Origin: Verrucomicrobiia bacterium
GTDB lineage: Bacteria > Verrucomicrobiota > Verrucomicrobiia > Palsa-1439
Length of the DNA stretch: 64,000 nucleotides
Assembly (NCBI GenBank): GCA_035516795.1
Contig: DATIZX010000076.1
Location: forward strand, 1,145-65,144
Direction: 5' to 3'
This document shows positions 1 to 49,674 of this stretch, in pieces; position 1 is the first letter of the stretch, and each line of letters starts with the position of its first letter. Below the pieces are notes generated by a model. It had not been told where the DNA came from, made no database searches, and saw nothing but the letters and a program-made list of their open reading frames with translations. The position numbers and the translations under genes are program-made.

Positions 1-960
1 GGAAGATGACCGCATTGCGATGATAAATGCCAAGGCGCATGAGACGATGGTGAATATGATCGCGGTCGGCGACAAACATTGCCTTGCTCCGCATAAAGAA
101 CACGCGATACGTGCCTTGCCCGGTCGTTTCCCACACGTGCATCGCGCGGAGAAAACGTCGAATCATGGCCAACAGCGCATCCATAATCGGCAACCCGAAA
201 GCCAGCATAGGGATCAGAATCGAAACGGCCACCGTGCTTTTTTGTGAAGTAGTGATGCTCAGTACGGCCAGGGTAAAGCCGAGGAACAAGCTGCCGGAAT
301 CGCCTAGGAAGATCGAGGCCGGGTGGAAATTATAAGGCAGAAACCCCAAGAGACAACCAGCTAACGCCGAACAGATCAGGGCCAATTCGACATTTTGTCC
401 AAGCAGGGCGATCCCTACGAGCGTCAATGAGGAAATCAATGCAATGCCGCTGGCGAGACCATCCAAACCGTCGATGAGGTTGAAAGCATTCGTCAATCCA
501 ACGATCCACAGCAGCGTGATGGGAATACTCCACATGCCGAGGTTGATCGATACTCCCCAAGGAAGGTCCAGCCGATTGATGACATAGCCGAAGCACATGG
601 CACAACAGGCAGCCAGCGCTTGCGTCAGGAATTTTACTCGCGCGCCGAGGGGACGAAGATCGTCAAAGATGCCCAGCGCCACGATAATGGAGGCGGCACC
701 AAGATAGCCGGTCCACCAATGCTTCCCAATCGTTGCGATGGGGTGCGAGACCAGGGCAAATGGTGAGAGCGTGAGGAACAGCATCAACGTAAACGAAATG
801 AAAATGACTACGCCACCCAGACGAGGAATGGGCCGGTCGTGAACTTTCCGCTCATTCGGGAGATCCATGGCATTCACGCGCACCGCCAACCAGCGGACTA
901 GGGGAGTTAGCGCGAATGATACTGCGAACCCACCGATGAACAGTAGAATGTATTTGCCCA
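1..960 (-). CDS. Initiating sugar-phosphate transferase (WecA/WbpL-like, MraY superfamily UDP-HexNAc:undecaprenyl-P HexNAc-1-P transferase); 3' end cut by window edge
   Basis: Not in the ORF track because there is no stop inside the window. My translation of the reverse strand from ATG at 958-960 reads MGKYILLFIGGFAVSFALTPLVRWLAVRVNAMDLPNERKVHDRPIPRLGGV...FNLIDGLDGLASG...VADRDHIHHRLMRLG, in frame to position 1. It is polytopic, with DDxxD-like, NxxNxxDGxDGL and HIHH motifs typical of the MraY/WecA family. It lies at the 3' end of the operon. Confidence 0.8.
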
Positions 961-1016
961 TACCCTTTGTACGCTCGCCTCTTTCCAATCCTACAATATG
1001 TTGGCCTTCAAGGCAA

Positions 1017-1991
1017 CTAATGTTCGCTTAATTGTTGCTCATACCAACGGATGGTAGTGCGAAGCCCATCTGGCAAACTTGTTTTTGCGGAAAAACCGAA
1101 CTCCCGTGCGGCTTTCTCAGTATCCAGACAGCGTCGTGGCTGGCCATCCGGCTTTGCAGGGTCCCAGCGAATCTCACCAGTGAAATTTGTCAACTTGGCG
1201 ATGATGCTGACCAAATCTTTAACGGAAATCTCCTTTCCGCTACCAACGTTCACGGGGTCGGCTTTATTGTAACGTTCCGCAGCTAGGAGGATGGCTTCTG
1301 CCGCATCGGCCACGTACAAGAACTCACGAGTCGGGGTGCCAGTGCCCCAGCATTCGATGAATCCGTCGCCCCGCGCGCGAGCATCGATACATTTCTTGAT
1401 AAGAGCAGGGATTACGTGGGAAGACTTAGGATCGAAATTATCCCGCGGTCCATAGAGGTTAACGGGCAGAAGATAGATCGCATTCAGACCGTATTCCTGG
1501 CGGTACGCCTGACACTGCACCAGCAAGGACTTCTTCGCAATTCCGTAAGGCGCATTGGTTTCCTCAGGATAACCGTTCCACAGATCTGTTTCTTGGAAGG
1601 GAACCGGGGCGAATTTCGGGTAGGCGCAAATCGTACCGACGACAACCAACTTGGGGAGCCGAAATTGCCTTGCTTGCTCGATCAGTTCGATCCCCATGAT
1701 GGCGTTTTCATAAAAAAACTGGCCCGGATGCTCTCGATTCGCGCCAATCCCTCCGACCACTGCTGCTAGGTGCAGCACCAAGGTTGGGCGAGCATCTTTG
1801 AACAGGCGAGCAATGTCTGCACGGTCGCGCAAGTCGTATTCTTTGCTGCGCGGCGCAAAGATCTTGCCGCAACCAGATTCCTTCATGGCGTCCACGACGA
1901 ATGAGCCGAGAAACCCTCTCCCACCAGTTACGACCACGCGTTGATTTCGCCAGAATTGCATGTTGGTCTGATCTTTCAAAGTTTGCTTCAC
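1017..1991 (-). CDS. fcl: GDP-L-fucose synthase (GDP-4-keto-6-deoxymannose 3,5-epimerase/4-reductase)
   Basis: 324 aa. Has the [12 protein letters not shown] Rossmann motif, a YxxxK region and the GDP-fucose synthase signature blocks ([26 protein letters not shown]). Overlaps gmd by 4 nt (ATGA). Confidence 0.9.
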
Positions 1992-3010
1992 TGTTGCCCC
2001 ACATCAACCATCGGCACTTTTCCCGCCAATTGGTCCTGCAGCATGTTCAGGTCTGCGTCCACCATCAATGTTATCAAGTCTTTGAATCGGGTCTTTGGTA
2101 TCCATCCCAGCACTTTTTTCGCCTTGGAGGCATCGCCGATCAGGAGATCCACCTCCGCAGGCCGATAATACCGTTTGTCAATCTCGACATATTGTTGCCA
2201 ATCCAAACCAACATGGTTGAAAGCTTCGGCGCAGAATTCTTTCACCGAATGCGTTTCGCCCGTGGCGATGACGTAATCATCCGGTTTGTCTTGCTGCAAC
2301 ATCTGCCACATCGCCTCGCAGTACTCGGGCGCGTAACCCCAATCGCGCTTGGCGTCCAGATTCCCCAGATACAACTTGTTCTGCAGACCAAGTTTGATGT
2401 GCGCCACGCCCCGCGTGATCTTGCGGGTCACAAAGGTTTCACCCCGGCGAGGGGATTCGTGATTGAACAGGATCCCATTGCAGGCATATAGATTGTAACT
2501 CTCTCGGTAGTTGACGGTCGCCCAATAAGCGAAAACTTTGGACACACCATAGGGGCTGCGTGGGTGAAAGGCTGTCGTCTCTCGCTGTGGGATTTCAGCG
2601 ACTTTCCCATACATCTCGCTGGAAGAGGCCTGATAAAAACGAAGATTACTGCCTGTTTCGCGAATGGCTTCCAAGATGCGAATGGTCCCAACCGCGGTAA
2701 TGTCGGCGGTGTACTCCGGGATGTCGAAACTCACGCGCACATGGCTCTGAGCACCGAGGTGATAGATCTCGTCTGGTTTCAAATCGTACAACATCTTTAC
2801 CAGACTGACCGAATCGCTCAGATCGCCATAGTGCAGAAAGAACTTAACGCCTCGCGTATGCGGGTCTTGGTAAAGATGGTCAATGCGAGCGCTGTTGAAA
2901 GAACTAGCTCGTCGAATGATGCCGTGAACCTCGTAACCTTTGTTCAATAGCAGCTCTGCCAGGTACGATCCATCTTGACCTGTAATTCCCGTGATCATCG
3001 CTCGTTTCAT
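1988..3010 (-). CDS. gmd: GDP-mannose 4,6-dehydratase
   Basis: 340 aa. Reads [39 protein letters not shown]...[16 protein letters not shown], a canonical Gmd. Confidence 0.92.
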
Positions 3011-4248
3011 GCTTCCTCCTTTGCCTCCATAATCTCAATCATTCTCGGCATCAAAGCCGATTTGGATATCTGACCGGCCCATCGATTCACACCCCCTCGC
3101 GGCAACGGTCGTTCGCAAGCAGCCATTTTCAATACATGTTCAATCACCGGCTTTATGTTGCCGTGTTGAACCACACACGCCTGGCCGTCGCGGTTCGTCT
3201 CGCGCAGAATCTCACCAATGTGACTCTCTGTGGGACCGATCGCCAGCACCGGTACGCCGATCATCAGTATATTGTAAATCTTGCAGGGATGCACGATTCC
3301 GGTGAAGGCGTTTCCCATCACAACCACGTGCAGATCAGCGCTCGACAAAGACGCTGATAATTGATCCAAAGGCTGGTAAGGCAGGCAAGTGATATTCGCG
3401 AGGCGTTGGTCGCGCGCGAAAGCTTGCACTTTTCGGAACTCGCTTCCACCACCCACAAAACAAAATGCAATGCGGGACTCTTGACTGAGTTGTTCCGCGG
3501 CGCGCAATAGCGTGTCCAAAGGATGACAGGGACTGTGATTGCCGGAGTACATCACCACAAACTTATTGTTCAAGCCGTGGCGCTCTCGGAAGGACTGCCG
3601 CCCGGAAAGATCGTAAGAGACCATGTCATCATGCGACCAGGGACGGATCACCGCAACTTTCTCTGGCGCAATACCCTTCTGCACAATGCGCTCCTTCATA
3701 AAACGGTCAAGGGCCACAACGTTTTGCGCCTGCCGCAGACTGTAGCGGAGCATGTTCTCCAGAATTCGAGCGGCCAAGGAATCCGCTTTCAACCATCCGG
3801 CGGCGATGGATTCGTCGGGATTGAGGTCCATCACCCAGAAAACGAAACGGCCACCTTTCCAGCGGACAAACAGTGCCCCCAAGAATGAAATCAAAGGTGG
3901 AGAGGTCATCGCCAGCACCACGTCAAATTGAGGCAGCCAAATCAATCGCAGCACGCAACTGAACAGGTAGCTGCCAAAATCCGCCGCGCGGCGCCACTTG
4001 GCACCTTTCCCCAAACCCATACTCGGAATCCGGACAATCTCAATGCCGCGCCACCTTTCGCGTTTGGCGAAACGCGTCGCGGGATTATCGTAGCCACGTT
4101 GGCTGGCGATCACCGTCACCTGGTGCCCACGCTCCGCAAGTCCGACAGCCAGATCCGTCAGGTGCTGTGCGGTCGAGGCCACATCAGGGTAGAAGCACTG
4201 GTTCAGTAACAGGATGCGCATCGCTCGAGCCCGTTCATATCCGCGCAT
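3007..4248 (-). CDS. Glycosyltransferase family 4 (WcaI-like, putative fucosyltransferase given the gmd/fcl neighbours)
   Basis: GT-B/GT4 fold. Reads [21 protein letters not shown] with a C-terminal E-x7-E-like region. The start may be the internal Met at about 4221 (MRILLL). Confidence 0.78.
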
Positions 4249-5071
4249 TTTCCTCGCGCCGTTTGAGTTCCTCCATCTTGAGGACGATCATGTATTCGTA
4301 CATCGAGATCAGCCGGCAATATACCAGTCCAGCCCGTCCGTCCAAAAAGCCCAGGCGGAGCACGTACATGTAAAGGAATCGCAACAAGGGACGGAAAGGA
4401 AGATGGAACGAGAGGGTTTTCAATGCCTTGCGGCGCGACGCTTTATCAGGGCTGAACAAGGAAGGTGACGGGCCGGTTTCCCCGCGCAGAATTTTCATCC
4501 CTTCCATTGCCTCCCACTGCGCGTACTGATTGTGTTTGGCAATCCATTCCGTCAAACCCTTGCTGAAGTTGTAGTGCAACAACTGAGATTGAAGGTGGCC
4601 GTGAGTACCGCGCAGAACCGGCGTAGGGTTCACCAGCCGTTCGAAGCGAATTTTGTCAGGCTGAAAAAATCGCATGATGGCTTCTGTGCGGAACGAATGC
4701 TTCAGCCATTGGCCCATGAAGTAGTTCTTGCGGCCGCAGTAAAAAGCGACGCGCCGCTCGCCAGCGTCTGTTGCAATCGCCACAATCTCCTGACGAAGTT
4801 CCTCGGGCATCCGTTCGTCTGCGTCCAAATAAAAGACCCACGGATGCTTAAACTCGATATGTTCCATCGCCCAATTCTGGTGCGCCGCCCAATTATCGAA
4901 CTTCCGCTGAATGACGCGCCCCCCGGCCGCACGTGCGATTTCTGTAGTCTGGTCGGTGCTGAACGAATCGAGGACGACGATGTCGTCCGACCATTTCACG
5001 GAGTCCAGACAGGCGGGAAGATTTTGCTCTTCATTGAGCGTGAGCACCAAGATGGATACGTTTGCCTGCAT
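4235..5071 (-). CDS. Glycosyltransferase family 2
   Basis: Reads ILVLTLNEEQNLPACLDSV...VVLDSFSTDQT...YLDADE (GT-A DXD). Confidence 0.8.
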   Translation of the reverse strand: MQANVSILVLTLNEEQNLPACLDSVKWSDDIVVLDSFSTDQTTEIARAAGGRVIQRKFDNWAAHQNWAMEHIEFKHPWVFYLDADERMPEELRQEIVAIATDAGERRVAFYCGRKNYFMGQWLKHSFRTEAIMRFFQPDKIRFERLVNPTPVLRGTHGHLQSQLLHYNFSKGLTEWIAKHNQYAQWEAMEGMKILRGETGPSPSLFSPDKASRRKALKTLSFHLPFRPLLRFLYMYVLRLGFLDGRAGLVYCRLISMYEYMIVLKMEELKRREENARI

Positions 5072-5077
5072 CTGTAC

Positions 5078-5752
5078 TCAGGGTTTCTTTGCTTCCACGA
5101 GAAGCGTGTGCGGTGCCTCGGGCGTATTCTCGTATTCGCTGGAAAGCAATTGGTTGTCGATGAGAAGCGGGTAGGCCGTGTCGGTGATCGGCCGGCACTG
5201 ATGAATGTCCACGAATCCAATCTGGGACGCGAGCTCCTGCAAATAGGAAAAAGTCAGTATGGTGAGATGTTCGCCGCGACATAGGAGGAAATTGGCGAAG
5301 CGACCTCCGACACTTTCTCGTTTGTCTGGAAAGTCAGAAAACCACGCGGCATCACCTTCCACCAGCTTCTTCGCGGCGGCATCACCATTCGGGCCGCCAA
5401 TTCGTATGATTCCACCAGGCTTCAGGCACCGAAATAAATCCTCCAAATGGGAAGTCAAGTTGCTGTCGGGCAGATGTTCAATGACGTGATGAGAATAGAA
5501 GGCGTCCACGGTTCCATCATGAAAGGGCAACCGATTGCGCAGGTCGGCCCACACGTCGATCTTGGCGCTCACGAGATTCGCGTCGACGTTGATCCAGCCG
5601 TCCAGATAATGGGCTTGGCCGGGACCCAAATGGACTTTGACGGTGGCGGTGCCGTTCCGAGGCGCTCGGAAGTGCTTATATACCAAGCCACTCAACCACA
5701 TTGGCCAACGCATCAGGCCAAAGTAGGCGGCCTTGGTTCTCCTTCTGATCAT
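5078..5752 (-). CDS. Class I SAM-dependent methyltransferase
   Basis: Methyltransf_11-like motifs (VIEHLPD...LKPGGIIRIGGPN). Confidence 0.7.
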   Translation of the reverse strand: MIRRRTKAAYFGLMRWPMWLSGLVYKHFRAPRNGTATVKVHLGPGQAHYLDGWINVDANLVSAKIDVWADLRNRLPFHDGTVDAFYSHHVIEHLPDSNLTSHLEDLFRCLKPGGIIRIGGPNGDAAAKKLVEGDAAWFSDFPDKRESVGGRFANFLLCRGEHLTILTFSYLQELASQIGFVDIHQCRPITDTAYPLLIDNQLLSSEYENTPEAPHTLLVEAKKP

Positions 5753-5782
5753 CGGTTGTTCCGATCGACGAGGCGCGCCGTG

Positions 5783-7534
5783 CTAAGACAGCTTGGAAAC
5801 AACATAATGTCCCAGAGCAAGGGTATCGATATCGTTCCTCGAAAAACAGGCCACGGCTTGTTCCGGCGTATCCACGATCGGTTCGTTCTCATTGAAGCTG
5901 GTATTCAAGAGAGTTGCGACACCGCTCCGACGACGGAAAGCCTCAATCAAGTCATAATAAAGCGGATTATGTGAACGTTCGATGCTCTGTAATCGGCCCG
6001 TGCCATCCACGTGAGTAATGGCCGGTAATTTCGGCCGCCATTCAGGTCGAATCTTCACAACATGCATCATGAACGGACTCAGGATGTCTTGCTCGAAATA
6101 CGTGCTGACATATTCCTTCAAGACAGTCGGAGCAAATGGGCGGAACGATTCGCGCCGCTTGATCTTCGTATTGATGATGTCTTTCATGTTGGGGATGGAA
6201 GGATTCGCCAGAATCGATCGGTTGCCCAATGCGCGCGGCCCCCACTCGCTACGTCCTTGATACCAGCCCACCACTTTCCCTTGAACCAGCAAGTCAGCGA
6301 CAGCCTCCACAAGCTGTGCGTCGGTGGGGTAATGATGAACAGCATGCCCGCTCGATTCCGCAGTCTGCTTCAATTGCGACTCCGGATATTCCGGTCCCCA
6401 GTAGGCATGGTTCATGTAAAACCGCTTGTTTTGTCCCAATATTTCATGCCAGCAGTAGTACGCTGCTCCGAGACATGTTCCGTCATCTGACGCGGCGCAC
6501 TGGTTGTAGTACTTCTGAAAACGTGATTCGCGTAGAATGCGTGCATTGGCGACACCATTGAGGGCGCACCCCCCAGCCATCACCAACTGATCGGTACCGG
6601 GCACCAGTTGCTCCAGCTTTCGCATGCAATGCATTGCTACATCTTCAAAACGCACCTGCACCGAACGCGCGATGTCTTTATCACGTTGCTGCAGCGGCTC
6701 GGTGCGTTGACGCGGTGGGCCGAGCCGCTTCACGATGGCGTCGGTGTAGAGGCGGCCCATGATGATGTGATTGCGATCATCCACGGCGCCACTTTGACCG
6801 CCTTCATGCATCCCGAAATAGCCGGGCTTGAGGTGGAACCATCCACTCCCATTCAGCGAGACCCACTCTTGCATCAGATCCGCGTACCGATCCTCACCGT
6901 ACGGCGCCAAACCCATGACCTTGTATTCTTCGCCAAATTCATCGAACCCAATAAACTGACAAAGAGCCGTGTAGAAGAAACCGAGACTGTGGGGCAGATA
7001 CACTCGATCCAAAACCTCGATGTGCGAACCTTCGCATCGGGCCGCCATTGCACTCACGAAATCACCCGACGCATCGTAGGAGAACCCGGCGGTCAAGCTC
7101 TCAAAGGGCGATACATAATAAGCGCTTGCGATATGTGCCAGATGATGTTCGACCCACACCGTCTCGAATTTCACCCGAGCCGCATCTTCTTCACAAATTG
7201 CCGCGAGCTGGTCGATTGTGCTCTGAGTTTTTGAATTGCGCCGAAAATGTTCCCACACGGCGCCGGCGGCCTTCACCGGCCGTCTGGCCACATAGGCCAT
7301 CTTCGCCCGGTAATTGGCCTTCGGATTGCGTGCAATTGCGACGTGCGTCACATCGTTCAAGCTCACGCCGGATTCCTGCAACGAACGGCGAATTGCGTTC
7401 TCGGGGAAGCGCGGACAATGTTTCTCCCGTTGCTCGAGTCGCTCCTCCGCGACGGCGAACTTCAATTCGCCATCGATCACTACGCAGGCCGCCGAATCAG
7501 CGTGAAACGCATTAATTCCCAAAATCACCGCCAT
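5783..7534 (-). CDS. Carbamoyltransferase (NodU/CmcH family)
   Basis: 583 aa. Reads MAVILGINAFHADSAACVVIDGELKFAVAEERLEQREKH, with the C-terminal carbamoyltransferase domain present. Confidence 0.85.
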   Translation of the reverse strand: MAVILGINAFHADSAACVVIDGELKFAVAEERLEQREKHCPRFPENAIRRSLQESGVSLNDVTHVAIARNPKANYRAKMAYVARRPVKAAGAVWEHFRRNSKTQSTIDQLAAICEEDAARVKFETVWVEHHLAHIASAYYVSPFESLTAGFSYDASGDFVSAMAARCEGSHIEVLDRVYLPHSLGFFYTALCQFIGFDEFGEEYKVMGLAPYGEDRYADLMQEWVSLNGSGWFHLKPGYFGMHEGGQSGAVDDRNHIIMGRLYTDAIVKRLGPPRQRTEPLQQRDKDIARSVQVRFEDVAMHCMRKLEQLVPGTDQLVMAGGCALNGVANARILRESRFQKYYNQCAASDDGTCLGAAYYCWHEILGQNKRFYMNHAYWGPEYPESQLKQTAESSGHAVHHYPTDAQLVEAVADLLVQGKVVGWYQGRSEWGPRALGNRSILANPSIPNMKDIINTKIKRRESFRPFAPTVLKEYVSTYFEQDILSPFMMHVVKIRPEWRPKLPAITHVDGTGRLQSIERSHNPLYYDLIEAFRRRSGVATLLNTSFNENEPIVDTPEQAVACFSRNDIDTLALGHYVVSKLS

Positions 7535-7535
7535 A

Positions 7536-40743: not shown

Positions 40744-42051
40744 TCAGTTGCGGACGGCTCTCATGAAACGCAGTATGGGTGGTGGTACCATCGGCCGAAG
40801 CAGGGCTTTCATTTGCCTGCGCCGCTGTTGCCAGCGAGCTTGCTGAAGACAACGGGCAAGGAAGCGTTCGACGTCGGATTTGTTCTGCTCAACGGCCGTC
40901 TTAAGCAACGTCTGATACGTATCCTGCCGATACTCACCATCAAGAAGTTCATCAAAAACGGTACAGCCAGGCTGTGCCAAATTGGACAGAAACCTTTCTT
41001 CGTTGAACTCCACTGTTTCGAAGGGTACGCCATAAAGCCGGTACAAAACATAGTAGCGAAAGCATTTCTCGCAGTTCAGGCACCAGCGTTCGCCGCGATT
41101 GGCATAGCAAGAATATTGATAATGGCCGATGGAGGGATGGCGAGTCCATAAATTTTCAAACACAGTCAGTTTGTTCATTTCGCCGAGCCAGGGTTGATAA
41201 TCGAATAGCGGAGCGAAGATTGCGGAGAGTGGTCCTGTGATCTCCGGGGTAAAGCAATGGAAGCTGAGATCCTCTCCAAATTGTTGGATTTCGTTCCCCT
41301 GACACACCGTGCTCAACTCTTCGTCGACCACGAGGGGCGCGACCAGCGCCAGCAATGATGGCGTGAACGAAACGGCGTTGGCGAACAGCGTACCGGTCAC
41401 GATTCGTTCCTGAAGCGCCGGCTGCAATTGGGCCAACACGCCGTATACGTTGCTATGGATATGCCGGAGCTGAAGCCCCAATTGGCTTGCGATACGGGAA
41501 TCTTGCTCAAGTTTCGTTGGATTTCGTACAGGATCGCTCCCGATCCAGCCAGGGCCAAGAAAACTGATTAAGATCGGCTTGATGCCCTTGGCCAACAATT
41601 CACCAAGTACCAACAGACTTTCAGCCCCGCCGCCAAAAAAGAGACCGGTTTTACGCTGCGCGCTTTCCAATGAATGACATGGCGTATCTGCACCGGGCAA
41701 CATCACCGGCGGTTCCATGTGGATTTCAACAGCTCTGCCAAAATGCCGCGCCGTTATGTTCTTCACGAAATGTGGCCATCCGTTCAGGATTTGACGTAAG
41801 GCGTCAACTTCGTTGCCGCCGGCCTGCGGCTCGATCAAGGACGACTCTATCCGAAACCGGCTTTCAGTGAAACTCAGGGGCAGTGAGGCTGGCAGGGCCA
41901 GATACAAGCTTGTCACACCCGCTGCTCGCTTGAGTGTGGACGGATACTCGACCCAAAATGAGTTTGGATAACCCGGGAAAGGATTGGGTTCCCAACGACA
42001 TTCCAGTCGCCGAGAGGAGATCTCCTCGATGGAAATGACGTACTCGTTCAT
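40744..42051 (-). CDS. PP-loop superfamily (QueC/ExsB-like) protein with degenerate P-loop
   Basis: LFFGGGAESLLVLG sits where SGGxDS is expected. The C-terminal SCYANRGERWCLNCEKCFRYYVLYRL resembles the QueC-type Zn-binding Cys cluster. Confidence 0.4.
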   Translation of the reverse strand: MNEYVISIEEISSRRLECRWEPNPFPGYPNSFWVEYPSTLKRAAGVTSLYLALPASLPLSFTESRFRIESSLIEPQAGGNEVDALRQILNGWPHFVKNITARHFGRAVEIHMEPPVMLPGADTPCHSLESAQRKTGLFFGGGAESLLVLGELLAKGIKPILISFLGPGWIGSDPVRNPTKLEQDSRIASQLGLQLRHIHSNVYGVLAQLQPALQERIVTGTLFANAVSFTPSLLALVAPLVVDEELSTVCQGNEIQQFGEDLSFHCFTPEITGPLSAIFAPLFDYQPWLGEMNKLTVFENLWTRHPSIGHYQYSCYANRGERWCLNCEKCFRYYVLYRLYGVPFETVEFNEERFLSNLAQPGCTVFDELLDGEYRQDTYQTLLKTAVEQNKSDVERFLARCLQQARWQQRRRQMKALLRPMVPPPILRFMRAVRN

Positions 42052-43863: not shown

Positions 43864-45144
43864 CTAGTTGTTCTTGGGTTCCTTGACCAAATCCCAGGAA
43901 TGTTCGACCAATGCCGTGGAGTATTCGATTGACGGCATGAACGCCGTCGCAAAAAAAACACTCGACTCAACGTCGAACACACAGGCGGTAGGCACCCAAT
44001 CCAATTGGTTGATGTGATCCTCAGCCAGCACGGCGATTTTGTACTGTCCCTGCGGCAAAGGCAATTTGGGAATCCGGCAGATCACCTGACCGCGACCGTG
44101 CGCGAGCCGGAACCGCTTGCCTTCGGCGTCCATGTTGCAGTGTGTGACGGCAATGCCGATGTGGTTGAAAATGGTGAGCATGAATTGCACCTGTGCGAGT
44201 TCCTCTTGTGTCTCAAATTCCAGCACGATGTCGATCGGATGGCCCGACACTGGCAGAGCGGTGCGCCCACCGGTTTCATTGCGAAGATATGCCGCCACGA
44301 ACCGCAGACGACCATCGCCGCTACGCCGCTGCGCATACCGCAAATTGGTCGACTCCTGCCGCACGATGCTGGCAAGATATTCCTGGGTAGCTTGGCGAGC
44401 CGTCCCGCGGCTGATCAGCCGTCCCTGATCCAGGATAATCGCGGTAGGACAAAGCTCCATAATGGCGCCCATGTTATGGCTCACAAACAGTACTGTCCGG
44501 CCTTGCCTGGCAACGTCATCCATCTTGCCGAGGCATTTCTTTTGAAACGCGGCATCGCCCACAGCCAGGACTTCGTCCACAAGGAGGATTTCGCTTTCCA
44601 GATGGGCCGCTACCGCAAACGCCAATCGCATGTACATGCCACTCGAATAATGCTTTACCGGCGTGTCGAGGAATTTCTCCAACTCAGCGAACGCAACCAT
44701 TTCGTCGAATTTCCGATTAATCTCCTGGCGGCGCATCCCGAGAATTGCGCCGTTTAGGTAAATGTTCTCGCGTCCCGTCAATTCCGGATGAAACCCGGTG
44801 CCGACCTCGAGCAAACTGCCTACGCGTCCCTTGAGACAAACACGTCCGGTTGTCGGCTCGGTGATCCGCGCAAGAACTTTCAGCAGCGTGCTTTTGCCGG
44901 CACCGTTGCGGCCGATGATGCCCACCACATCGCCGCGCTTTACCTCAAACGAAACGTCCCGCAAGGCCCAGATTTCGTTGGGCAGCTCATCGTTCGCGTG
45001 GCCGTTCCAAGCGGCAGCAACGCGCCTAAATGGCGTCGTCACCGCTTGCATCAGGGAATCGCGCAAGGTGACGTAACGTTCCTTTCGCGTACCGAGGCGA
45101 AACCGTTTGGTGAGATTCTCGACGCGTATGGCCGTTTGGCTCAT
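43864..45144 (-). CDS. wzt: O-polysaccharide ABC exporter ATP-binding protein with C-terminal glycan-binding domain (second copy)
   Basis: Reads MSQTAIRVENLTKRF...GRNGAGKST...YSSGMYMRL...LLVDEVLAVGD, plus a C-terminal domain of about 190 aa. Start at the internal Met (ATG at 45142-45144). Confidence 0.85.
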   Translation of the reverse strand: MSQTAIRVENLTKRFRLGTRKERYVTLRDSLMQAVTTPFRRVAAAWNGHANDELPNEIWALRDVSFEVKRGDVVGIIGRNGAGKSTLLKVLARITEPTTGRVCLKGRVGSLLEVGTGFHPELTGRENIYLNGAILGMRRQEINRKFDEMVAFAELEKFLDTPVKHYSSGMYMRLAFAVAAHLESEILLVDEVLAVGDAAFQKKCLGKMDDVARQGRTVLFVSHNMGAIMELCPTAIILDQGRLISRGTARQATQEYLASIVRQESTNLRYAQRRSGDGRLRFVAAYLRNETGGRTALPVSGHPIDIVLEFETQEELAQVQFMLTIFNHIGIAVTHCNMDAEGKRFRLAHGRGQVICRIPKLPLPQGQYKIAVLAEDHINQLDWVPTACVFDVESSVFFATAFMPSIEYSTALVEHSWDLVKEPKNN

Positions 45145-45148
45145 CCGA

Positions 45149-46016
45149 TCAGACCGTATCTGCGAAAATCTTCTCCATGCGACGGAAATAAAAGGCGCCG
45201 ATAACAAAGACGAGAACAGCCGCAAGCCCGGACACCCAAAGGATTGCTCCGGGCGCCGGTGCGCCAAGCAACGCCCAGCGAAATCCTTCGACCACGCCCG
45301 CCATCGGATTGAGGCCGTAGAGCGAACGCCATGGCTCGGGCAACAAGCTGCTCGGATAGGCAATCGGCGTGCAGAAGAGCCAGGCTTGAATTAGAAAACT
45401 GACGGTGTGCCGTACATCACGATACCGCACGTTCATGGCTGACAGCCAAAATCCCACTCCCAGCGATGTAATGAACGCCAATAGGAAAAACGCAGGGAGA
45501 AGAATGAGATGGATTGTCGGCCAAACGTGAAAGTACGCCATCATTCCAATCAACACGATGAACGCCAGCAGGAAATCCACGGCGCCTGAAAGGACGGCGG
45601 AAATCGGCACAATCAGCCGCGGAAAATAAACTTTCTTGATCAGATTGGCATTGCCCACGAGGCTTTCCGCCGCTCCAACAAGGCCGTTGGCGAAAAAATT
45701 CCAAGGGACCAACGCCGCATACGCAAAAATCGGATAGGGGAGACCGTCGGATGGAATTTTTGCCAGCCGTCCAAAAAACAAGCTGAAAACGACCATGGTG
45801 AACACCGGCTGTAGAATGGCCCACGCAGCGCCCAGCGCAGTCTGCTTGTAGCGAACCTTGATGTCGCGCCAGATCAGAAAGTAAAGCAACTCGCGAAATT
45901 CCCAAATCTCCTGCAACCGCAGGGATACCCACCCGCGCGACGGCTCGATTACAAGATCGAAATCGGAATCAGGCGGATTCTGGATGACGCTGTTCAAGAC
46001 TTTCACTTGGGCAGAC
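45149..46016 (-). CDS. wzm: ABC-2 type polysaccharide exporter permease (second copy)
   Basis: A GTG start at 46016 gives MKVLNSVIQNPPDSDFDLVIEPSRGWVSLRLQEIWEFRELLYFLIWRDIKVRYKQT. The ORF track's 480-aa version has an Arg-rich non-coding-like N-terminus. Confidence 0.8.
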
Positions 46017-46101
46017 TTCCGGTTAATCACGCGACAACTTCGACAAGCCTGCAAAGCTTGCGAACCAGAGGTTGATTGCGAATGGAGGCGTTCCTGCTGC
46101 G

Positions 46102-46674
46102 TCAGGAAGCGTCCACCAACTGCGAGCGACTGACGATCAAGCGCGCCTGACAACCGAGCGTAGATAACAGCACGGCCACGCGATCGCGGTCGCTCATTTC
46201 CTGCAAAACGACGGCCTGCAATCCGCGTAATGGTCCGTCGGCAATCTCGACGAGGTCGCCCGGTCGAAAACCGGGGCGGACCGTGACCACGTCGACGGCT
46301 TCGCCGGCCCATTCTTTGAGCTGTTCGATAATCCGCTCGTCGACAATTGTAGGCTTGCCGCCAAAACTGACCACGCCCACGACTTGCGGAGCGTATTGCA
46401 CGGCGCGAAAGCTCTGGGACAGATTCAGACGACAAAAAACGTAGCGCGGGAATAAAGGTCCGATAACCCAACGCTTCACGCGGCGAATCGTCTTGAGGCG
46501 TTTGAGTCGAGGATAATACGTTTCCAGACCGAGGGATTCCCGGCAGTACTGCTCGGCACTGGCTTCCTTGCGCGGTCGCGTATGAACGCACAACCAGCCC
46601 GTTGTGTTGGGAAATGCTCCGTTCTGGGACGGGACCGCCGCCGGAGAGGCTGAAGACATGGCTTCGTTATTCAC
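46102..46674 (-). CDS. NusG/RfaH-family transcription antiterminator paralog (UpxY/LoaP-like)
   Basis: NGN-like N-terminal domain (WLCVHTRPRKEASAEQYCRESLGLETYYPRLK) and a KOW motif (FRPGDLVEIADGPLRGLQAVV). Confidence 0.75.
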   Translation of the reverse strand: MNNEAMSSASPAAVPSQNGAFPNTTGWLCVHTRPRKEASAEQYCRESLGLETYYPRLKRLKTIRRVKRWVIGPLFPRYVFCRLNLSQSFRAVQYAPQVVGVVSFGGKPTIVDERIIEQLKEWAGEAVDVVTVRPGFRPGDLVEIADGPLRGLQAVVLQEMSDRDRVAVLLSTLGCQARLIVSRSQLVDAS

Positions 46675-46820
46675 TGGTTATCGTTGTTCTCGGAGTCAGC
46701 GGTGGCGTCTGGGCACGCTGCCGCCATTCCGGTGCTTTCCTGTTTGTGCAACAAGAACCCGGTTTTTCTGTTCCTTGGCCGGCCGACAGCCCGGCCATTT
46801 CAGCGCCTCATTCAATTACA

Positions 46821-48950
46821 TCAAGCGGCGCCGTTTCGCTTCCCCTTCTTGTGATAATAGGAATAGCGGTACGGATAGTAATAGAATCCGTGCAATTCCT
46901 GATCGATGTTGTTCATGACGACTCCGACCAGCGGAGCGCCACACTCCCGCAGCTTCTGCATGGAGCGGGAAACAATCTCGCGACTCACTTTACCGAATCC
47001 AATGACGTAAACGACCCCTTTCACATGCGGCAACAGCAGGAGCGGATCGCTGACCGCAGTGACCGGCGGGCTGTCGATAATGACGCGATCATATTGCCGA
47101 CAAGCTTCCTGGATGAGTTCTGCCAAACGGTCGGATCCAAGTAGTTCGGGCGCGTTGGGGGGTACGTCACCCACTTGAAGAACGTCCAGGTTCGGAATGT
47201 CGGTCGCCGCAACCACATCCTCCAGCTTCGAATGATTGGTCAAATACAACGAAAGTCCTTTGTCAGCACGGGAACGGAAGACCTTGTGTTGCACGGGATG
47301 ATGCAGATCGCAATCGATCAATAAAGTCCGTTGCCGGTTGGAAGCGAAAGCGATCGCCAGGTTGGCAGACACGACCGATTTGCCTTCGCCGGGAGCTGTG
47401 CTGGTGACGAGCAACGATTTCGCGGCATTCAACTCTGGCTTCAGAGTGATGGTGGCCCGCAAATTTCGAAAGGCCTCGGCGGAAATGGAATGCGGCTGCA
47501 ATTGGAGCACGCGGCCATTCTGGGTACCGTCGGGCAGCTCAATGCGCGGTACACCGGTCAGTAAGGGCAGGCCCAGCAAATCCACGTCCTCGTACGACTT
47601 AATCTTGTCGTCGAACGAATTCATCAGGAAGCTCAAACCCACCGCGGCTCCCAATCCCAAAATAACGCCCATCGCGAAATTACGCGTTTTTCTCGGTTTG
47701 AACGGCGCTCCGGGCACTTGCACCGGATCGACCAGCCGTATGTTGTTAGACTCCAGTTTGCCAGCGACACTGGCTTCCTTCATCCGCGTGAGGATCGCGT
47801 TATACATCTGGCTGTCCGCATCGGCATTGCGCTTCAACGTGTTGTACTCCGCCTGTTTGCTGTCCATTTGCAGCGCCTGCTGCTCCTGATCCTTGAGTGC
47901 GCCCTGCAAACTGTCCTCGTTAGCCTTCGCAAGGGAATATTGCGACTGCAGCGAATTGACGACATCGTTGCAGGCGGCCAAGAGCCGGCCGTTGAGGGCC
48001 TTCAGCTCAGCTTGCAGAGCCACGATTAACGGATGCTGGTCTTTGTAGCGTTCGCGCAAGACGGCCAATTGCACTTGTTTCTCGCTCAATTGTTGACGGA
48101 TGGCAGCCACCTTCGGGTTGCTCAGAATGGCTGGAATCTCCGTGACTTTGCGACCGTCTTCCAATTGCTTCTTCACCACATCCCAGTCAGCTTCAGCCGC
48201 GAGCCGCGTTTTCTCGGCTTGCGTAACGGCGGCGTTGAGTTCTTTGAGCTTGTCAACAACGATGTCCTGCCGCTCTTCCACCGAAACCGCGTGAGAACGC
48301 TGCCGGTACTGGGCCAGAGCCGCTTCCGATTTTTCGAGCTTGGACCTGTATTCGTCTGCTTGCTGCTGTAACCAGCGGACGGCGTCGCTGGCTGCGGCCA
48401 TTCGTCTATCGAGATTCTGTTTGATGTACTGCTGCGCCACGCCAGTGGCCAACAGCGCTGCCAATTGCGGGTCGGCGTTGTCTACATTAATGGCAATCAA
48501 CCGGCTGCCGCGAATCGGCTCAACGCTGAGACAGCCTTGTAGCACACCCGCCAAATCAGTATTGCCTCCGGCGCCGGCGAGAAATGCGGCGTTCTGGTCG
48601 AGCTTCAACGCTTGGACCACCAATTCGCATAACGTCCGGCTCTGGATGAGCTGCATCTGCGTGTTCATGTACTCCTCGTCCCGTGTGTCGGAGGTCAATA
48701 CGTCCTGGATGTTCAGAACCTTCACTGTATCGGAATCCACCTGGACGACAGCAGTGGCTCGATAAGTGGGAGTTTGCCGATAAGTCCAAACGACAGCACC
48801 GATGACCACTGTCAAAAACGCCGCCAGCGCCAGATATTTGTGTTCAACGAGAACAACGAGGTATTGTTGCCACGGAAAACGTCGTTGTTGTGGGCGTCCG
48901 ATCATCGGCCGGGGTGCCGTGGTAGAAATTGCAGGAAGGGTTGTTTGCAT
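46821..48950 (-). CDS. wzc: Polysaccharide co-polymerase / tyrosine autokinase (Wzc/ExoP/GumC-like BY-kinase)
   Basis: Two TM helices flank a large coiled-coil periplasmic domain. The C-terminal kinase has Walker A TAPGEGKSVVSANLA and a Tyr-rich tail YYYPYRYSYYHKK. Confidence 0.85.
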   Translation of the reverse strand: MQTTLPAISTTAPRPMIGRPQQRRFPWQQYLVVLVEHKYLALAAFLTVVIGAVVWTYRQTPTYRATAVVQVDSDTVKVLNIQDVLTSDTRDEEYMNTQMQLIQSRTLCELVVQALKLDQNAAFLAGAGGNTDLAGVLQGCLSVEPIRGSRLIAINVDNADPQLAALLATGVAQQYIKQNLDRRMAAASDAVRWLQQQADEYRSKLEKSEAALAQYRQRSHAVSVEERQDIVVDKLKELNAAVTQAEKTRLAAEADWDVVKKQLEDGRKVTEIPAILSNPKVAAIRQQLSEKQVQLAVLRERYKDQHPLIVALQAELKALNGRLLAACNDVVNSLQSQYSLAKANEDSLQGALKDQEQQALQMDSKQAEYNTLKRNADADSQMYNAILTRMKEASVAGKLESNNIRLVDPVQVPGAPFKPRKTRNFAMGVILGLGAAVGLSFLMNSFDDKIKSYEDVDLLGLPLLTGVPRIELPDGTQNGRVLQLQPHSISAEAFRNLRATITLKPELNAAKSLLVTSTAPGEGKSVVSANLAIAFASNRQRTLLIDCDLHHPVQHKVFRSRADKGLSLYLTNHSKLEDVVAATDIPNLDVLQVGDVPPNAPELLGSDRLAELIQEACRQYDRVIIDSPPVTAVSDPLLLLPHVKGVVYVIGFGKVSREIVSRSMQKLRECGAPLVGVVMNNIDQELHGFYYYPYRYSYYHKKGKRNGAA

Positions 48951-48957
48951 GGCAATC

Positions 48958-49674
48958 CTAAAAGACGGATTCTGGCACGAAGACCACGTCGTCGGGAATC
49001 AGTTCGACATCTTTGCTGCTGTCGCCGCTGCTGATGATAGCGGCGACGTTCACGGTGATCTTCTTCTCGAGGCCGTTTTCGGTCCGAGAGATGCTGACCC
49101 GGCTGGGAGCTGCGATCGGCGTGAAGCCCCCAGCCCGAGCGATGGCCTGCAATAACGTGAGTTTCTCATCCGCGGAGAAGTCGATTGCCCCCGGCGAGCG
49201 TACCTGCCCGAGAATGAAAACTCGGCGGCTGTTCGCCCGATCGACGAGCACGGAAACCTGTGGATGCACCAGATAGTCGCGACCGAGCCGCTGTTTCAAC
49301 AAATGCTCCGCTTCACTGACACTGAGCCCACCGACGAGAACCGCTCCCAGCATCGGGTAGTTGATCATTCCTTGAGTCGAAACGCGGGTCTTGACAGACA
49401 AATCGGGTTCGTTGAAGACATTGATTTGAAGAGTGTCCAACGGCTGGATCCGGTAGTCGGACGGCGAGGACGCAGATGTAGATGCCGCTTGTGCCGACGA
49501 GTGAACGACCGCCGACGATTCACTGGATGACGGGCCCGGCTGTATGACGCGGCTGCTCGAGTATGTTTCTGCGCAGGATACAAAACCGAGACAAAGCGCC
49601 AGGGAGATCATTAATCTCACCAGGGCACTAGCCGGCCCGTACATTTTGACACCCTCTATTCGACCCTTGGCCAT
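48958..49674 (-). CDS. wza: Polysaccharide export outer-membrane/periplasmic protein (Wza/GumB-like; Poly_export + SLBB)
   Basis: Reads PLDTLQINVFNEPDLS...RVFILGQVRSPGAIDF, with an N-terminal signal/lipobox-like LGFVSC. It is the first gene of the operon. Confidence 0.8.
   Translation of the reverse strand: MAKGRIEGVKMYGPASALVRLMISLALCLGFVSCAETYSSSRVIQPGPSSSESSAVVHSSAQAASTSASSPSDYRIQPLDTLQINVFNEPDLSVKTRVSTQGMINYPMLGAVLVGGLSVSEAEHLLKQRLGRDYLVHPQVSVLVDRANSRRVFILGQVRSPGAIDFSADEKLTLLQAIARAGGFTPIAAPSRVSISRTENGLEKKITVNVAAIISSGDSSKDVELIPDDVVFVPESVF

Follow-up and report, generated by a model that had tools for sequence, protein, structure and literature searches.

A long surface-glycan operon of an uncultured soil Verrucomicrobium encodes two Wzm/Wzt exporters together with PCP-2a, OPX and Wzy-family proteins

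The DNA analyzed here, a stretch of 64 kb referred to as the window, belongs to an uncultured soil Verrucomicrobium and harbors a glycan operon (positions 1–49674, minus strand) that merges parts normally divided between two textbook export routes, in which PCP-2a pairs with Wzx/Wzy and Wzm/Wzt pairs with WaaL. The window contains a core system into which a second module, bringing its own exporter, has been inserted. As the core layout recurs in Acidobacteria, the locus looks like an undescribed variant route and not an accident. The reading preferred here for the core and insertion operon, held with slightly less than even confidence, is that lipid-linked glycans are exported by ABC transporters, may be processed by a Wzy-family enzyme at the periplasmic face and exit via PCP-2a/OPX. 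The core would comprise a short Class 3 OPX, a PCP-2a BY-kinase, a Wzm/Wzt pair with a C-terminal glycan-binding domain, ∼12 single-domain glycosyltransferases (GTs), the Wzy-family enzyme, a WecA-type initiator, a carbamoyltransferase, methyltransferases and the enzymes for GDP-6-deoxyhexose synthesis. The insertion (module A, 42–28 kb) would contribute CDP-sugar, C-methyl-sugar and acyl-transfer genes.

The original prediction described a one-strand, near-gapless locus of at least 44 genes. The refined gene models agreed with the co-directional, near-gapless arrangement, but the actual count is 46 ORFs, transcribed from 49674 to 1, and a NusG-family gene at 46102–46674 had been overlooked. 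The coding share of 1–49674 in the refined ORF listing is 98.2%, with a non-coding sum of 887 nt, and the widest gaps are 159 bp (9426–9584), 146 bp (46675–46820) and 95 bp (46007–46101). Some of the gene models (GT4c/Glyco_trans_1_2/GT4d and GT2c/GT4g) are backed by public gene calls. About a dozen 4-nt stop/start overlaps occur across the operon. The ATGA overlaps proposed at 12803–12806, 15410–15413, 23013–23016 and 28735–28738 were found on the minus strand, but that at 1988–1991 reads GTGA; further ATGA overlaps are present at 3007, 16423, 27854, 33018, 34301 and 39425, and a TTGA overlap at 37596. No intergenic terminator-like sites were found within the operon, which ends 1.1 kb past position 1 with a 634-aa initiating transferase, followed by a convergent gene. 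An assembly artefact was rejected because independent ENA and Logan contigs are 100% identical to the window over the parts covered, and in a related long-read MAG (62–66% protein identity) a single contig of 189 kb shows the same arrangement of two transporters.

The gene originally read as Wza does encode an OPX protein (48958–49674, minus strand), but a short lipoprotein of 238 aa with a Poly_export domain and one SLBB domain (Pfam HMM matches PF02563, 1.9e-23; SLBB_2, 6.7e-10). It carries a lipobox-like GFVSC motif, and its C-terminus lies 5 residues past the SLBB domain, leaving no room for an outer-membrane helix; it is of the Class 3 type. The BY-kinase Wzc was borne out as a full PCP-2a protein of 709 aa (46821–48950, minus strand) with Wzz, GNVR and AAA_31/ParA matches, scoring 177.6 bits against TIGR01007 (cut-off 108). 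Its kinase motifs are complete, with Walker A (GEGKS), A′ (LLIDCD) and B (VIIDSPP) and a C-terminal Tyr cluster (YYYPYRYSYY). A beta-barrel partner gene for the OPX was not found in the window, nor was a Wzb-type phosphatase in Pfam scans of the window; in relatives of the locus, a PF10082 beta-barrel gene lies directly upstream of the OPX gene. Similar to the Wza-Wzb-Wzc systems of group 1 capsules and colanic acid, the locus encodes a PCP-2a with Walker A/A′/B motifs and Tyr cluster, an OPX and a Wzy-family protein; unlike them, it has no Wzx or Wzb and an OPX without an outer-membrane helix, and ABC exporters occupy the position of the flippase. The short Poly_export-SLBB lipoprotein also resembles the OPX of the Class 3 OPX and beta-barrel translocons for Myxococcus xanthus EPS, BPS and MASC, whereas the studied M. 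xanthus translocons are Wzx/Wzy-dependent and the beta-barrel gene is missing in this window (PMC9601211, PMC9603273, PMC12819527). In this translocon literature, 14 of 453 Class 3 OPX and beta-barrel couples adjoin ABC transporters (Schwabe et al.). A further likeness is to XrtA/PEP-CTERM EPS loci: the top NCBIfam models for the OPX (pepcterm_export, EpsE and EpsY, every score below cut-off), PCP, kinase domain, AsnB-like and Wzy-like proteins are PEP-CTERM/exosortase-associated, relatives carry the PF10082 beta-barrel, and acidobacterial versions of the locus have a sigma-54 activator gene upstream. Unlike in those loci, all scores are below the equivalog cut-offs, and no exosortase gene is present in the window.

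Both ABC exporters are complete, as originally read. Wzm1 (45149–46006; 285 aa, GTG start; PF01061, 1.8e-20) and Wzm2 (26997–27857; 286 aa; PF01061, 1.7e-19) are ABC-2 permeases, and Wzt1 (43864–45144; 426 aa; ABC_tran, 1.7e-22; Wzt_C, 3.8e-16) and Wzt2 (25741–26997; 418 aa; ABC_tran, 1.9e-21; Wzt_C, 3.5e-10) are ATPases, all encoded on the minus strand. The presence of a C-terminal glycan-recognition domain in each Wzt was confirmed, with Wzt_C scores of 59.8 and 40.5 bits (cut-off 30.4), and both retain Walker A, the YSSGM signature, Walker B and the H-loop; neither pair is the decayed pseudo-copy that had been considered as a counter-argument. Wzm1 is 83% identical to the Wzm of the related locus L003 and 54% to Wzm2. 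The best solved relative is the full-length Aquifex Wzt (8dku), which Wzt1 matched over residues 56–404 (E 7e-73). The proposed comparison of the two Wzt proteins gave 64% identity for the NBDs and only 23% for the C-domains. Between the window and the related MAG, where module B is conserved too, the C-domains of Wzt2 and of the second Wzt share 66% identity; for Wzt1 and its positional ortholog in that MAG, which is followed by a different downstream module (A), the figure is only 24%. The C-domain divergence and the co-conservation of exporter and module support the reading that two polymers may be made, in which the head exporter Wzm1/Wzt1 would serve module A and Wzm2/Wzt2 the conserved module B.

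The ABC-2 permease with a Wzt_C-bearing ATPase and the WecA-type initiation are shared with E. coli O9a, Klebsiella and Aquifex aeolicus, the methyltransferases here being candidate chain-end caps. Unlike the present locus, those loci lack a PCP-2a, an OPX and a Wzy-family protein, their product is ligated by WaaL, and they have few polymerising GTs compared with ∼12 single-domain GTs here. Co-encoding of an ABC exporter with PCP and OPX is likewise seen in E. coli group 2 capsule and Vi loci (KpsMT-KpsE-KpsD; VexABCD), where PCP and OPX take the polymer through the periplasm and the outer membrane. However, their PCP is a PCP-3 with no kinase, as against a BY-kinase PCP-2a and a short Class 3 OPX here, KpsT has no glycan-binding domain, and the lipid anchor is made by KpsS/KpsC; on the present locus, the KpsM and VexB models fall well short of their cut-offs, and no KpsS/C homologue was found in Pfam scans of it. 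That one operon combines two exporters differing in their C-domains with only one initiating transferase could also point to dual-chain assembly of one composite glycan, the exporters delivering a backbone and a side-chain or cap polymer that the Wzy-family enzyme would join outside the cytoplasm, for which the lactococcal and enterococcal rhamnan-type wall polysaccharides are Gram-positive precedents. This is considered quite improbable, as locus versions with one exporter (L096, L097, L014, L015, and L036) carry the Wzy-family gene just as well, so that a second exporter cannot be required for its role.

It had been stated that no Wzx was visible. In agreement, Pfam showed no Wzx/MOP match in 1–49674, and the only proteins with at least seven hydrophobic segments were the two Wzm, the Wzy-like protein and the initiating transferase. 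A Wzx just outside, which would have spoken against the original prediction, was found neither past the left edge, where the operon closes, nor in 49675–64000, the search covering 64 kb plus 1.1 kb of the 86 kb contig. A Wzx could be encoded elsewhere in this genome, since in one relative (L043) a Polysacc_synt_3 flippase adjoins the same cassette. Plain juxtaposition is an alternative: OPX, PCP-2a and the Wzy-family protein would form a conventional Wzx/Wzy-dependent exopolysaccharide route with Wzx encoded elsewhere, the Wzm/Wzt pairs would export O-antigen-type chains ligated to LPS by an unlinked WaaL, and the shared strand would reflect no more than genomic packing. We judge it unlikely, even though it follows the textbook pairing and a separate Wzy_C (WaaL-like) gene lies close by in L084. 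In four loci seen in full, from two phyla (Verrucomicrobia L003 and L013; Acidobacteriota L096 and L097), the genes run without interruption as beta-barrel-OPX-PCP-2a-(NusG)-Wzm-Wzt. PCP-2a is thereby followed immediately by Wzm-Wzt, which apparently also holds for L036, where a partial Wzc-like ORF lies directly upstream of Wzm-Wzt. The Wzy-like gene is located inside the GT block behind PCP-2a/Wzm-Wzt and is joined to the flanking GT4 genes by overlapping stop/start codons. When ∼10 kb on the upstream side of the Wzy-like gene was inspected in ∼19 independent loci, Wzm/Wzt was present in 8–9, a fused ABC exporter in one and a MOP flippase in L043 only, and ten had no transporter within 10 kb. 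In Acidobacteriota and Verrucomicrobiota, beta-barrel-OPX-PCP-2a-Wzm-Wzt-GTs-Wzy-like-GTs forms one collinear block, in which a Wzx is hardly ever present. In the acidobacterial L097, the genes GT2b, GT4a, GT4b, GT4c, GT1_2, GT4d, Wzy-like and GT4e/f are collinear with the window (41–54% identity), directly behind OPX-PCP-2a-Wzm-Wzt; GT2b has 42–44% identity to its collinear counterparts in L096 and L097. This recurring contiguous order supports the hand-off of an ABC-exported glycan to the OPX/PCP complex. The original prediction posed two polymers and such a hand-off as alternatives; the comparative evidence supports the two together.

The gene at 12803–14152 (minus strand), earlier called ligase/polymerase-like, encodes a polytopic protein of 449 aa with ∼11 TM segments. 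The proposed check of Wzy against WaaL yielded HMM links to Wzy polymerases and none to WaaL, pointing to the polymerase half of the label. The matches are to PF14296 (22.4 bits, below cut-off), NF046084 (1.9e-13) and TIGR04370 (1.8e-6), and 58 of 64 relatives match PF14296 and none Wzy_C. From these sub-threshold scores, the product is assigned as a putative Wzy-family protein and not a WaaL-like one. An AF2 model (pLDDT 90.6) predicted a large periplasmic loop at about residues 227–345, into which the invariant Arg/Asp motifs of the family would fall; the model had no structural relative in the PDB. In characterised systems, chains are already fully polymerised when the Wzt C-domain recognises their cap; a later polymerase would be unnecessary, which argues against a Wzy-polymerase step. 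The protein could instead be a ligase that, once ABC export has delivered the completed and capped chain, moves it from undecaprenyl-PP onto lipid A-core or another acceptor; module B would then be an O-antigen-type locus with its own unconventional ligase, and OPX/PCP-2a would serve only capsule-like retention or export. The presence of Wzt C-domains implies that the chains are complete and capped and would call for transfer, not polymerisation; the topology, with Arg-rich motifs in the periplasmic loop, is compatible with either activity, and polymerases and ligases are hard to separate by sequence. Nevertheless, a low probability is assigned to the ligase in view of the family matches of the 64 relatives, the consistent co-encoding of the BY-kinase PCP-2a and the separate WaaL-like gene in L084.

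The remaining genes are all on the minus strand. Module A includes an asparagine-synthase-like adenylating enzyme without the glutaminase domain (42064–43863; PF00733, 2.7e-11; TIGR01536 partial) and a soluble 435-aa protein with no Pfam/NCBIfam match (40744–42051). Then follow a weakly matched polysaccharide pyruvyl-transferase-like protein (39425–40699; PF04230, 6.6e-5; CsaB, 1.7e-6), a glucose-1-phosphate cytidylyltransferase (38655–39428; TIGR02623, 366 bits, cut-off 300), an NAD-dependent sugar epimerase/dehydratase (37596–38627; PF01370, 1.3e-38), a sugar C-methyltransferase with Zn-binding, MT and C-terminal domains (36346–37599, TTG start at 37599; PF08484, 4.6e-69; PF08421, 6.8e-23), a second nucleotidyltransferase (35516–36316; PF00483, 3.6e-8), a PIG-L/LmbE-type de-N-acetylase (34838–35494; PF02585, 1.2e-15), an RmlC-type 3,5-epimerase (34301–34831; PF00908, 7.9e-65), a DUF4910/DUF2172 aminopeptidase-like protein with wHTH (33018–34304; PF16254, 1.1e-117) and a short-chain dehydrogenase (32308–33021; PF00106, 2.1e-39). 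Two tandem GT8-like paralogs (31405–32292 and 30481–31347; weak GT8/GT34 matches, 52% mutual identity) precede GT-A-like protein a (29481–30461; no significant Pfam match), which is 53% identical to its paralog b (24753–25718), a hexapeptide-repeat acyltransferase (28735–29484; PF00132, 3.6e-14) and a DUF5672 putative glycosyltransferase (27854–28738; PF18922, 1e-41). Downstream of Wzt2 and GT-A-like b lie a polysaccharide deacetylase (24032–24769; PF01522, 9.5e-28), two GT2 glycosyltransferases (23013–24038 and 22018–23016; PF00535, 1e-25 and 4.2e-29), a second PIG-L de-N-acetylase (21059–22015; PF02585, 7.4e-24), GT4a and GT4b (19683–21020 and 18519–19682; 44–46% identity to L097) and an FkbM-family methyltransferase, a candidate for the chain-end cap (17637–18500; PF05050, 8.7e-15). 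GT4c, the Glyco_trans_1_2 protein and GT4d (16423–17628, 15410–16426, and 14220–15413; 45–54% identity to L097) precede the Wzy-like gene, and GT4e and GT4f (11610–12806 and 10526–11617) follow it. The operon continues with a class I SAM methyltransferase (9585–10517; PF08241, 9.2e-23), a full asparagine synthase-type amidotransferase (7536–9425; PF00733, 2.7e-79, and GATase_7) and a NodU/CmcH-type carbamoyltransferase (5783–7534; PF16861, 2.7e-69; PF02543, 1.4e-41), a conserved cassette member that many loci encode ∼4 kb downstream of their Wzy-like gene. The last genes encode a small methyltransferase (5078–5752; PF08241, 1.2e-8), GT2c and GT4g (4235–5071 and 3007–4221; HMM matches), a GDP-mannose 4,6-dehydratase (1988–3010; PF16363, 4.9e-147), a GDP-6-deoxyhexose reductase/epimerase (1017–1991; PF01370, 6.2e-55) and the initiating WecA-type polyprenyl-phosphate HexNAc-1-P transferase (1–961, cut by the window edge; PF00953, 1.5e-45), whose full length in L001 includes a C-terminal WbaP-like TM and CoA_binding_3 part.

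From the observed gene content, intactness, synteny and conservation, we infer the functional steps of the ABC-export and PCP-2a/OPX-exit reading. Each glycan would be assembled on undecaprenyl-PP-HexNAc at the cytoplasmic face and finished by a terminal modification, which the cognate Wzt C-domain would recognise for export by Wzm/Wzt, Wzx not being involved. The Wzy-family enzyme would take the module-B product at the periplasmic face, most likely joining exported blocks under PCP-2a control and less likely transferring the glycan to an acceptor, and the polymer would exit via PCP-2a/OPX and a beta-barrel encoded elsewhere in the genome.

The locus is probably transcribed as a single long surface-glycan operon from a conserved promoter at ∼49.8 kb. 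A sigma-70-like promoter (TTGTGA-17-TATAAT, 10/12 consensus match) is positioned at 49813–49841 on the minus strand, ∼140 nt upstream of the OPX start, and both hexamer positions are kept in L003 and L004. The overlooked gene at 46102–46674 (minus strand) encodes a specialised RfaH/UpxY-like NusG paralog of 185–190 aa (PF02357, 2e-14), 86–88% identical in L003 and L004, which scored 86.6 bits with RfaH TIGR01955 and 75.9 bits with UpxY NF033644, both below the cut-offs. An ops-like element, GGCGGCAGCGTG, is present at 46714–46725 (minus strand) in the Wzc-to-NusG-paralog intergenic region, the only match to GGCGGCAGNNTG in the window, and is one base off the E. coli ops sequence GGCGGTAGCGTG. 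In L003 and L004, conservation of that intergenic region is confined to a 19–22 nt block around this site; the site is absent from L013. The paralog may keep transcription processive by loading at this site just upstream of its own gene. Long polysaccharide operons with a NusG paralog of their own are known from RfaH-ops of E. coli and UpxY of Bacteroides and, as for UpxY, the putative loading site here immediately precedes the gene of the factor; unlike RfaH and UpxY, this gene follows those for OPX and PCP as the third of the operon, and its model scores are below the cut-offs. The block TTTGGCACGCG...CGCTG is invariant between the leader of the window and the beta-barrel-to-OPX intergenic region of L003 and L004. 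Together with the sigma-54 activator gene of the acidobacterial loci, it is the evidence for a possible sigma-54-like element of the leader, TGGCAC-N7-GC with -24/-12 spacing at 49934–49949 (minus strand), which is offered only as a lead.

All long ORFs between positions 1 and 49674 were found on the minus strand in the ORF listing. Following refinement of start codons from overlaps, public gene calls and homologues, this region comprised 46 genes with 98.2% coding sequence and a total of 887 nt of intergenic DNA, the widest gaps being 159, 146 and 95 bp. This is in agreement with the original prediction of at least 44 co-directional genes nearly without intergenic DNA. Four of its five ATGA overlaps were also recovered on the minus strand, but the one at 1988-1991 reads GTGA; at least seven further 4-nt overlaps are present. 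Simple, crude scans of the coding strand revealed no intergenic terminator-like sites, and fewer such sites than in shuffled sequence, and an Rfam search of the window returned no matches. The sequence stems from a Verrucomicrobiae MAG, and one protein of it matches an NCBI entry at 100% identity. Independent ENA and Logan contigs were 100% identical over the parts covered, and an assembly chimera was ruled out, as independent assemblies and a long-read MAG of a relative agree.

Read from 49674 to 1, the operon begins with genes for a lipoprotein OPX (48958-49674; 238 aa, Poly_export and one SLBB), a Wzc-type PCP-2a (46821-48950; 709 aa, Walker A/A'/B, tail YYYPYRYSYY) and a NusG-family protein (46102-46674; 190 aa, PF02357), the last of which had been overlooked in the original prediction. 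These are followed by a first exporter, Wzm1/Wzt1 (45149-46006 and 43864-45144), module A (42-28 kb), a second exporter, Wzm2/Wzt2 (26997-27857 and 25741-26997), and module B (26-0 kb). Module A encodes, in order, an AsnB-like enzyme, an unknown protein, a pyruvyl-transferase-like protein, glucose-1-P cytidylyltransferase, an epimerase/dehydratase, a sugar C-methyltransferase, a second nucleotidyltransferase, PIG-L, an RmlC-like epimerase, DUF4910, an SDR, two GT8-like paralogs, a GT-A-like protein, a hexapeptide acyltransferase and DUF5672. Module B starts with a GT-A-like paralog, a polysaccharide deacetylase, two GT2 and PIG-L, and continues with two GT4, an FkbM methyltransferase, GT4, Glyco_trans_1_2, GT4 and the Wzy-like membrane protein (12803-14152). 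It then carries two GT4, a methyltransferase, AsnB, a carbamoyltransferase, a second methyltransferase, GT2 and GT4, and ends with Gmd, a GDP-6-deoxyhexose reductase/epimerase and a WecA-type initiating transferase. As L001, a locus overlapping the left end of the window, reaches 1144 bp past position 1 and shows a convergent gene after the initiating transferase, the operon ends there. The full-length initiating enzyme (634 aa; L001 9159-11063, corresponding to window 1-961 and beyond) is a WecA-type polyprenyl-phosphate HexNAc-1-P transferase fused to a WbaP-type N-terminal half, with the TM and CoA_binding_3 part present and the Bac_transf catalytic domain absent; the same fusion was seen in three related loci (L007, L008 and L017).

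Both exporters consist of an ABC-2 permease with an adjoining ATPase. Both Wzt proteins retain intact Walker A/B, signature and H-loop motifs, and both carry a Wzt_C domain (59.8 and 40.5 bits, cut-off 30.4) that is predicted to bind glycan, the closest solved relative being the full-length Wzt of Aquifex, in which the carbohydrate-binding domain is present as well. The two complete exporters with Wzt C-terminal domains proposed from the sequence were thus confirmed, and a decayed duplicate was ruled out by the completeness of both pairs and their intact ATPase motifs. Wzm1 and Wzm2 share 54% identity. Comparison of the two Wzt C-domains, which had been put forward as a check, showed just 23% identity, as against 64% between the nucleotide-binding domains. 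The two-exporter form also occurs in the related long-read MAG on a single 189 kb contig (loci L003 and L007), in which the head Wzm (locus L003) is 83% identical to Wzm1 and the head Wzt C-domain just 24% identical to that of Wzt1, while its second Wzt C-domain shares 66% identity with that of Wzt2. The Wzt2 C-domain and module B are conserved in this MAG and the Wzt1 C-domain and module A are not, so that module B is assigned Wzm2/Wzt2 as its exporter and the variable module A is assigned Wzm1/Wzt1. In this MAG, the second Wzt (L007 1-991) appears as two gene calls, ABC_tran then Wzt_C, probably owing to a sequencing-error frameshift rather than true decay. Two further paralog pairs were observed in the operon, 24753-25718/29481-30461 with no significant family match and 30481-31347/31405-32292 with only sub-threshold GT8/GT34 matches. 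Identity within each pair (52-53%) reflects about the same divergence as that of Wzm1 and Wzm2, which suggests an old module-level duplication or parallel acquisition.

In the loci examined, the Wzy-like gene was always found in the same cassette, namely, GT4, methyltransferase, GT4, Glyco_trans_1_2, GT4, Wzy-like, GT, GT4, GT2 and carbamoyltransferase, which ranges over Verrucomicrobia, Bryobacteraceae and many metagenome contigs. A cassette variant with a separate Wzy_C (WaaL-like) gene was noted at L084 8861-10615 (-). In a survey of ~19 independent loci, each covered for about 10 kb upstream, Wzm/Wzt was located at the 5' end in 8-9, a fused ABC exporter in one and a MOP flippase in one (L043), the remaining loci having no transporter within that reach. 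Wzm-Wzt, in places preceded by the NusG gene, directly follows PCP-2a in the verrucomicrobial loci L003 and L013; in L036, the ORF ahead of Wzm-Wzt is partial and Wzc-like. The complete single-exporter version was found in one run in two Acidobacteriota loci, L096 (part of a 5.1 Mb genome) and L097. Their order is NusG paralog (L096 only), sigma-54 activator, PF10082 beta-barrel, short OPX, PCP-2a, Wzm, Wzt, GT2, a GT4-family run (including Glyco_trans_1_2 in L097), Wzy-like and more GT4. L097 is collinear with module B of the window at 41-54% protein identity. In gene order, the window therefore corresponds to this core system with module A and a second exporter inserted. The parsimonious reading of these conserved neighbours, to which we would give slightly less than an even chance, is that they work together in an ABC-fed, Wzx-free export route. 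The presence of two exporters in one operon could also be explained by dual-chain assembly of a single composite glycan; this appears quite improbable and is weakened because the single-exporter loci keep the Wzy-like gene.

No Wzx/MOP protein (Polysacc_synt type, Polysacc_synt_3 type or MurJ type, 12-14 TM) was detected among all window ORFs of at least 100 aa, and the hydropathy scan of the operon identified only the two Wzm proteins, the Wzy-like protein and the initiating transferase as polytopic. Nor was a MOP protein present in the 1144 bp of L001 just past the left edge. The absence of a visible Wzx noted in the original prediction therefore holds within the window and just outside it, and the Wzy-like protein has no Wzx partner in its locus over the same extent. 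Among the ~19 related loci, a MOP flippase occurs in just one, L043, where a Polysacc_synt_3 protein (1458-3206) sits at the usual Wzm/Wzt position. A hidden flippase shared by the metagenome loci was rejected because the unannotated polytopic proteins near the cassette are unrelated to one another and lack Pfam matches. The missing flippase would also be accounted for by conventional pathways that are merely juxtaposed here, with Wzx and WaaL encoded at unlinked sites. This alternative is considered unlikely; the core genes recur in one run in Acidobacteriota and Verrucomicrobia.

The Wzy-like protein (449 aa) gave matches below the cut-off to PF14296 (22.4 bits, cut-off 26.6), TIGR04370 (27.2 bits, cut-off 40) and NF046084 (49.9 bits, cut-off 420), and PF14296 was matched, weakly, by 58 of its 64 relatives. 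Wzy_C (PF04932, the WaaL family) matched neither the protein nor any of the 64 relatives, and solved WaaL structures were matched neither by sequence nor by Foldseek. Of the earlier label 'ligase/polymerase-like', the polymerase part is hence favored by the weak Wzy-family matches, and the WaaL part was not borne out. The family is large, with 631 cluster representatives (E <= 1e-30). Applying the positive-inside rule to the model helices, the invariant motifs YMRDRxEIR and PRAxWPxKP would lie in a periplasmic loop of ~120 residues, a placement that would fit an enzyme whose substrate is lipid-linked glycan after export. Such a placement could also suit an unconventional ligase, an explanation we regard as improbable in view of the Wzy-family matches.

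The OPX matched PF02563 (82.9 bits) and, above their cut-offs, PF22461/PF10531. By length it belongs to Class 3, with its SLBB stopping at residue 233 of 238 and without a C-terminal outer-membrane amphipathic helix. Short Class 3 OPX proteins have been described for Myxococcus (PMC9601211, PMC9603273, PMC12819527), and ABC transporters were reported beside 14 of 453 short-OPX/barrel couples (Schwabe et al.). A PF10082 beta-barrel gene adjoins OPX directly upstream in L003, L004 (another relative), L096 and L097. No homologue of the L003/L004 barrel was found anywhere in the window, so that the partner is encoded elsewhere or missing. The corresponding stretch of the window (49675-50893) contains a gap of 499 bp and a minus-strand ORF of 239 aa (50174-50893), which has an N-terminal motif like that of SGNH hydrolases and a tail of low complexity. 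This ORF matched no family and may be a decayed gene. The PCP-2a shows two TM segments around a Wzz/GNVR periplasmic domain, a Walker A/A'/B kinase and a C-terminal Tyr cluster; no Wzb/PHP-type Tyr phosphatase (LMW-PTP or PHP) was matched among the 46 operon proteins. Current reviews continue to assign PCP-2a to Wzy pathways and PCP-3 to those based on ABC transporters. The locus differs from Group 2 capsule (Kps) systems, as the KpsM model scored 39-42 bits (cut-off 300) and the window PCP, unlike the PCP-3 KpsE, bears a kinase domain; Pfam scans of the operon proteins gave no Capsule_synth match indicative of KpsS/KpsC.

In the proposed ABC-fed route, cytoplasmic assembly of the glycans on a lipid carrier would be followed by their recognition by a Wzt C-domain and their export by Wzm/Wzt, with no need for Wzx. 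The module-B product would then be handled by the Wzy-family enzyme under the control of PCP-2a, and the polymer would exit via OPX and barrel. Textbook schemes separate Wzx/Wzy-PCP-2a pathways from ABC-transporter pathways. We tentatively suggest, while considering it rather doubtful, a fourth assembly logic for surface polysaccharides of Acidobacteriota and Verrucomicrobiota, in which a glycan-reading Wzm/Wzt takes the place of Wzx and feeds the Wzy-family polymerase completed, end-marked, large lipid-linked blocks, the BY-kinase PCP-2a gates polymerase output, exit occurs by a Class-3 OPX/beta-barrel translocon and the locus-encoded NusG paralog drives the whole. The components are all of known kinds; judged from the genomes, what appears new is their combination, its conservation in two phyla and the lack of a flippase, and no description of loci with PCP-2a, Wzm/Wzt and a Wzy-like protein was found in the literature searched. 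One collinear operon type in two abundant soil phyla joins BY-kinase PCP-2a, Wzy-family protein and Class-3 OPX with Wzm/Wzt. If these parts cooperate, this would change what ABC exporters can feed and BY-kinases regulate. Pathway calling from genomes would also be affected, as current rules would mis-assign such loci, and a widespread, structurally related exopolymer of soil Acidobacteria and Verrucomicrobia would bear on soil aggregation. The acidobacterial single-exporter version offers a simpler test bed.

The NusG paralog scored best with the RfaH (86.6 bits, cut-off 144.5) and UpxY (75.9 bits, cut-off 100) models, both below cut-off. The sole conserved stretch in the spacer between the PCP-2a and NusG-paralog genes is GCACCGGAATGGCGGCAGC, 19-22 nt long, with GGCGGCAGCGTG inside it. 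The GGCGGCAGNNTG block is common to three related loci (window 46714-46725 (-), the position of GGCGGCAGCGTG; L003 12234-12245; L004 12233-12244) and is one base off the E. coli RfaH ops consensus. This ops-like site, which was not found in L013, is a lead as the putative loading site of the NusG paralog. If the parts cooperate, the in-locus paralog and this site would bring the PVC group within the range of RfaH/UpxY-type operon control. A further cassette variant, L060 (115-6755), has a NusG-like gene closely followed by a GGCGGYAGNNTG match, together with a fused TMD-NBD ABC exporter. The OPX leader of the window shares homology with the spacer between the barrel and OPX genes of L003 and L004, and a sigma-70-like promoter (49841-49813, minus strand) and a TGGCAC-N7-GC block of sigma-54-like spacing (49949-49934, minus strand) are conserved in all three. 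A sigma-54 activator gene lies upstream in the acidobacterial loci (L096 2849-4300, L097 2696-4111), but the TGGCAC-N7-GC element remains a lead because a simple regular expression found no such pattern upstream in L096 and L097. In some Verrucomicrobia, the NusG paralog occurs at loci without glycan genes; these genes may be a variable island whose site is conserved. At L011 10001-10570 and L012 7528-8085, the same paralog (69-78% identity) is found without OPX, PCP or ABC genes. Genes for an epimerase, a KpsF-like SIS/CBS protein and EF-P come after it; the gene before it in L011 is that for the purine nucleoside phosphorylase, which in L003 and L004 stands beside the beta-barrel gene.

Divergent from the glycan operon, 51283-55328 (+) encodes two tandem paralogous secreted proteins with a nucleoside-hydrolase-like N-terminal region (sub-cut-off) and CBM6/CBM35, one of them with a TSP3 repeat. 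A sugar ABC importer is next (55348-59057, minus strand), and a zinc-type alcohol dehydrogenase (59074-60085, minus strand) is present as two overlapping ORFs in different frames, with ADH_N in 59216-60085 and ADH_zinc_N in 59074-59616, owing to a frameshift or, alternatively, to an error in the assembly.
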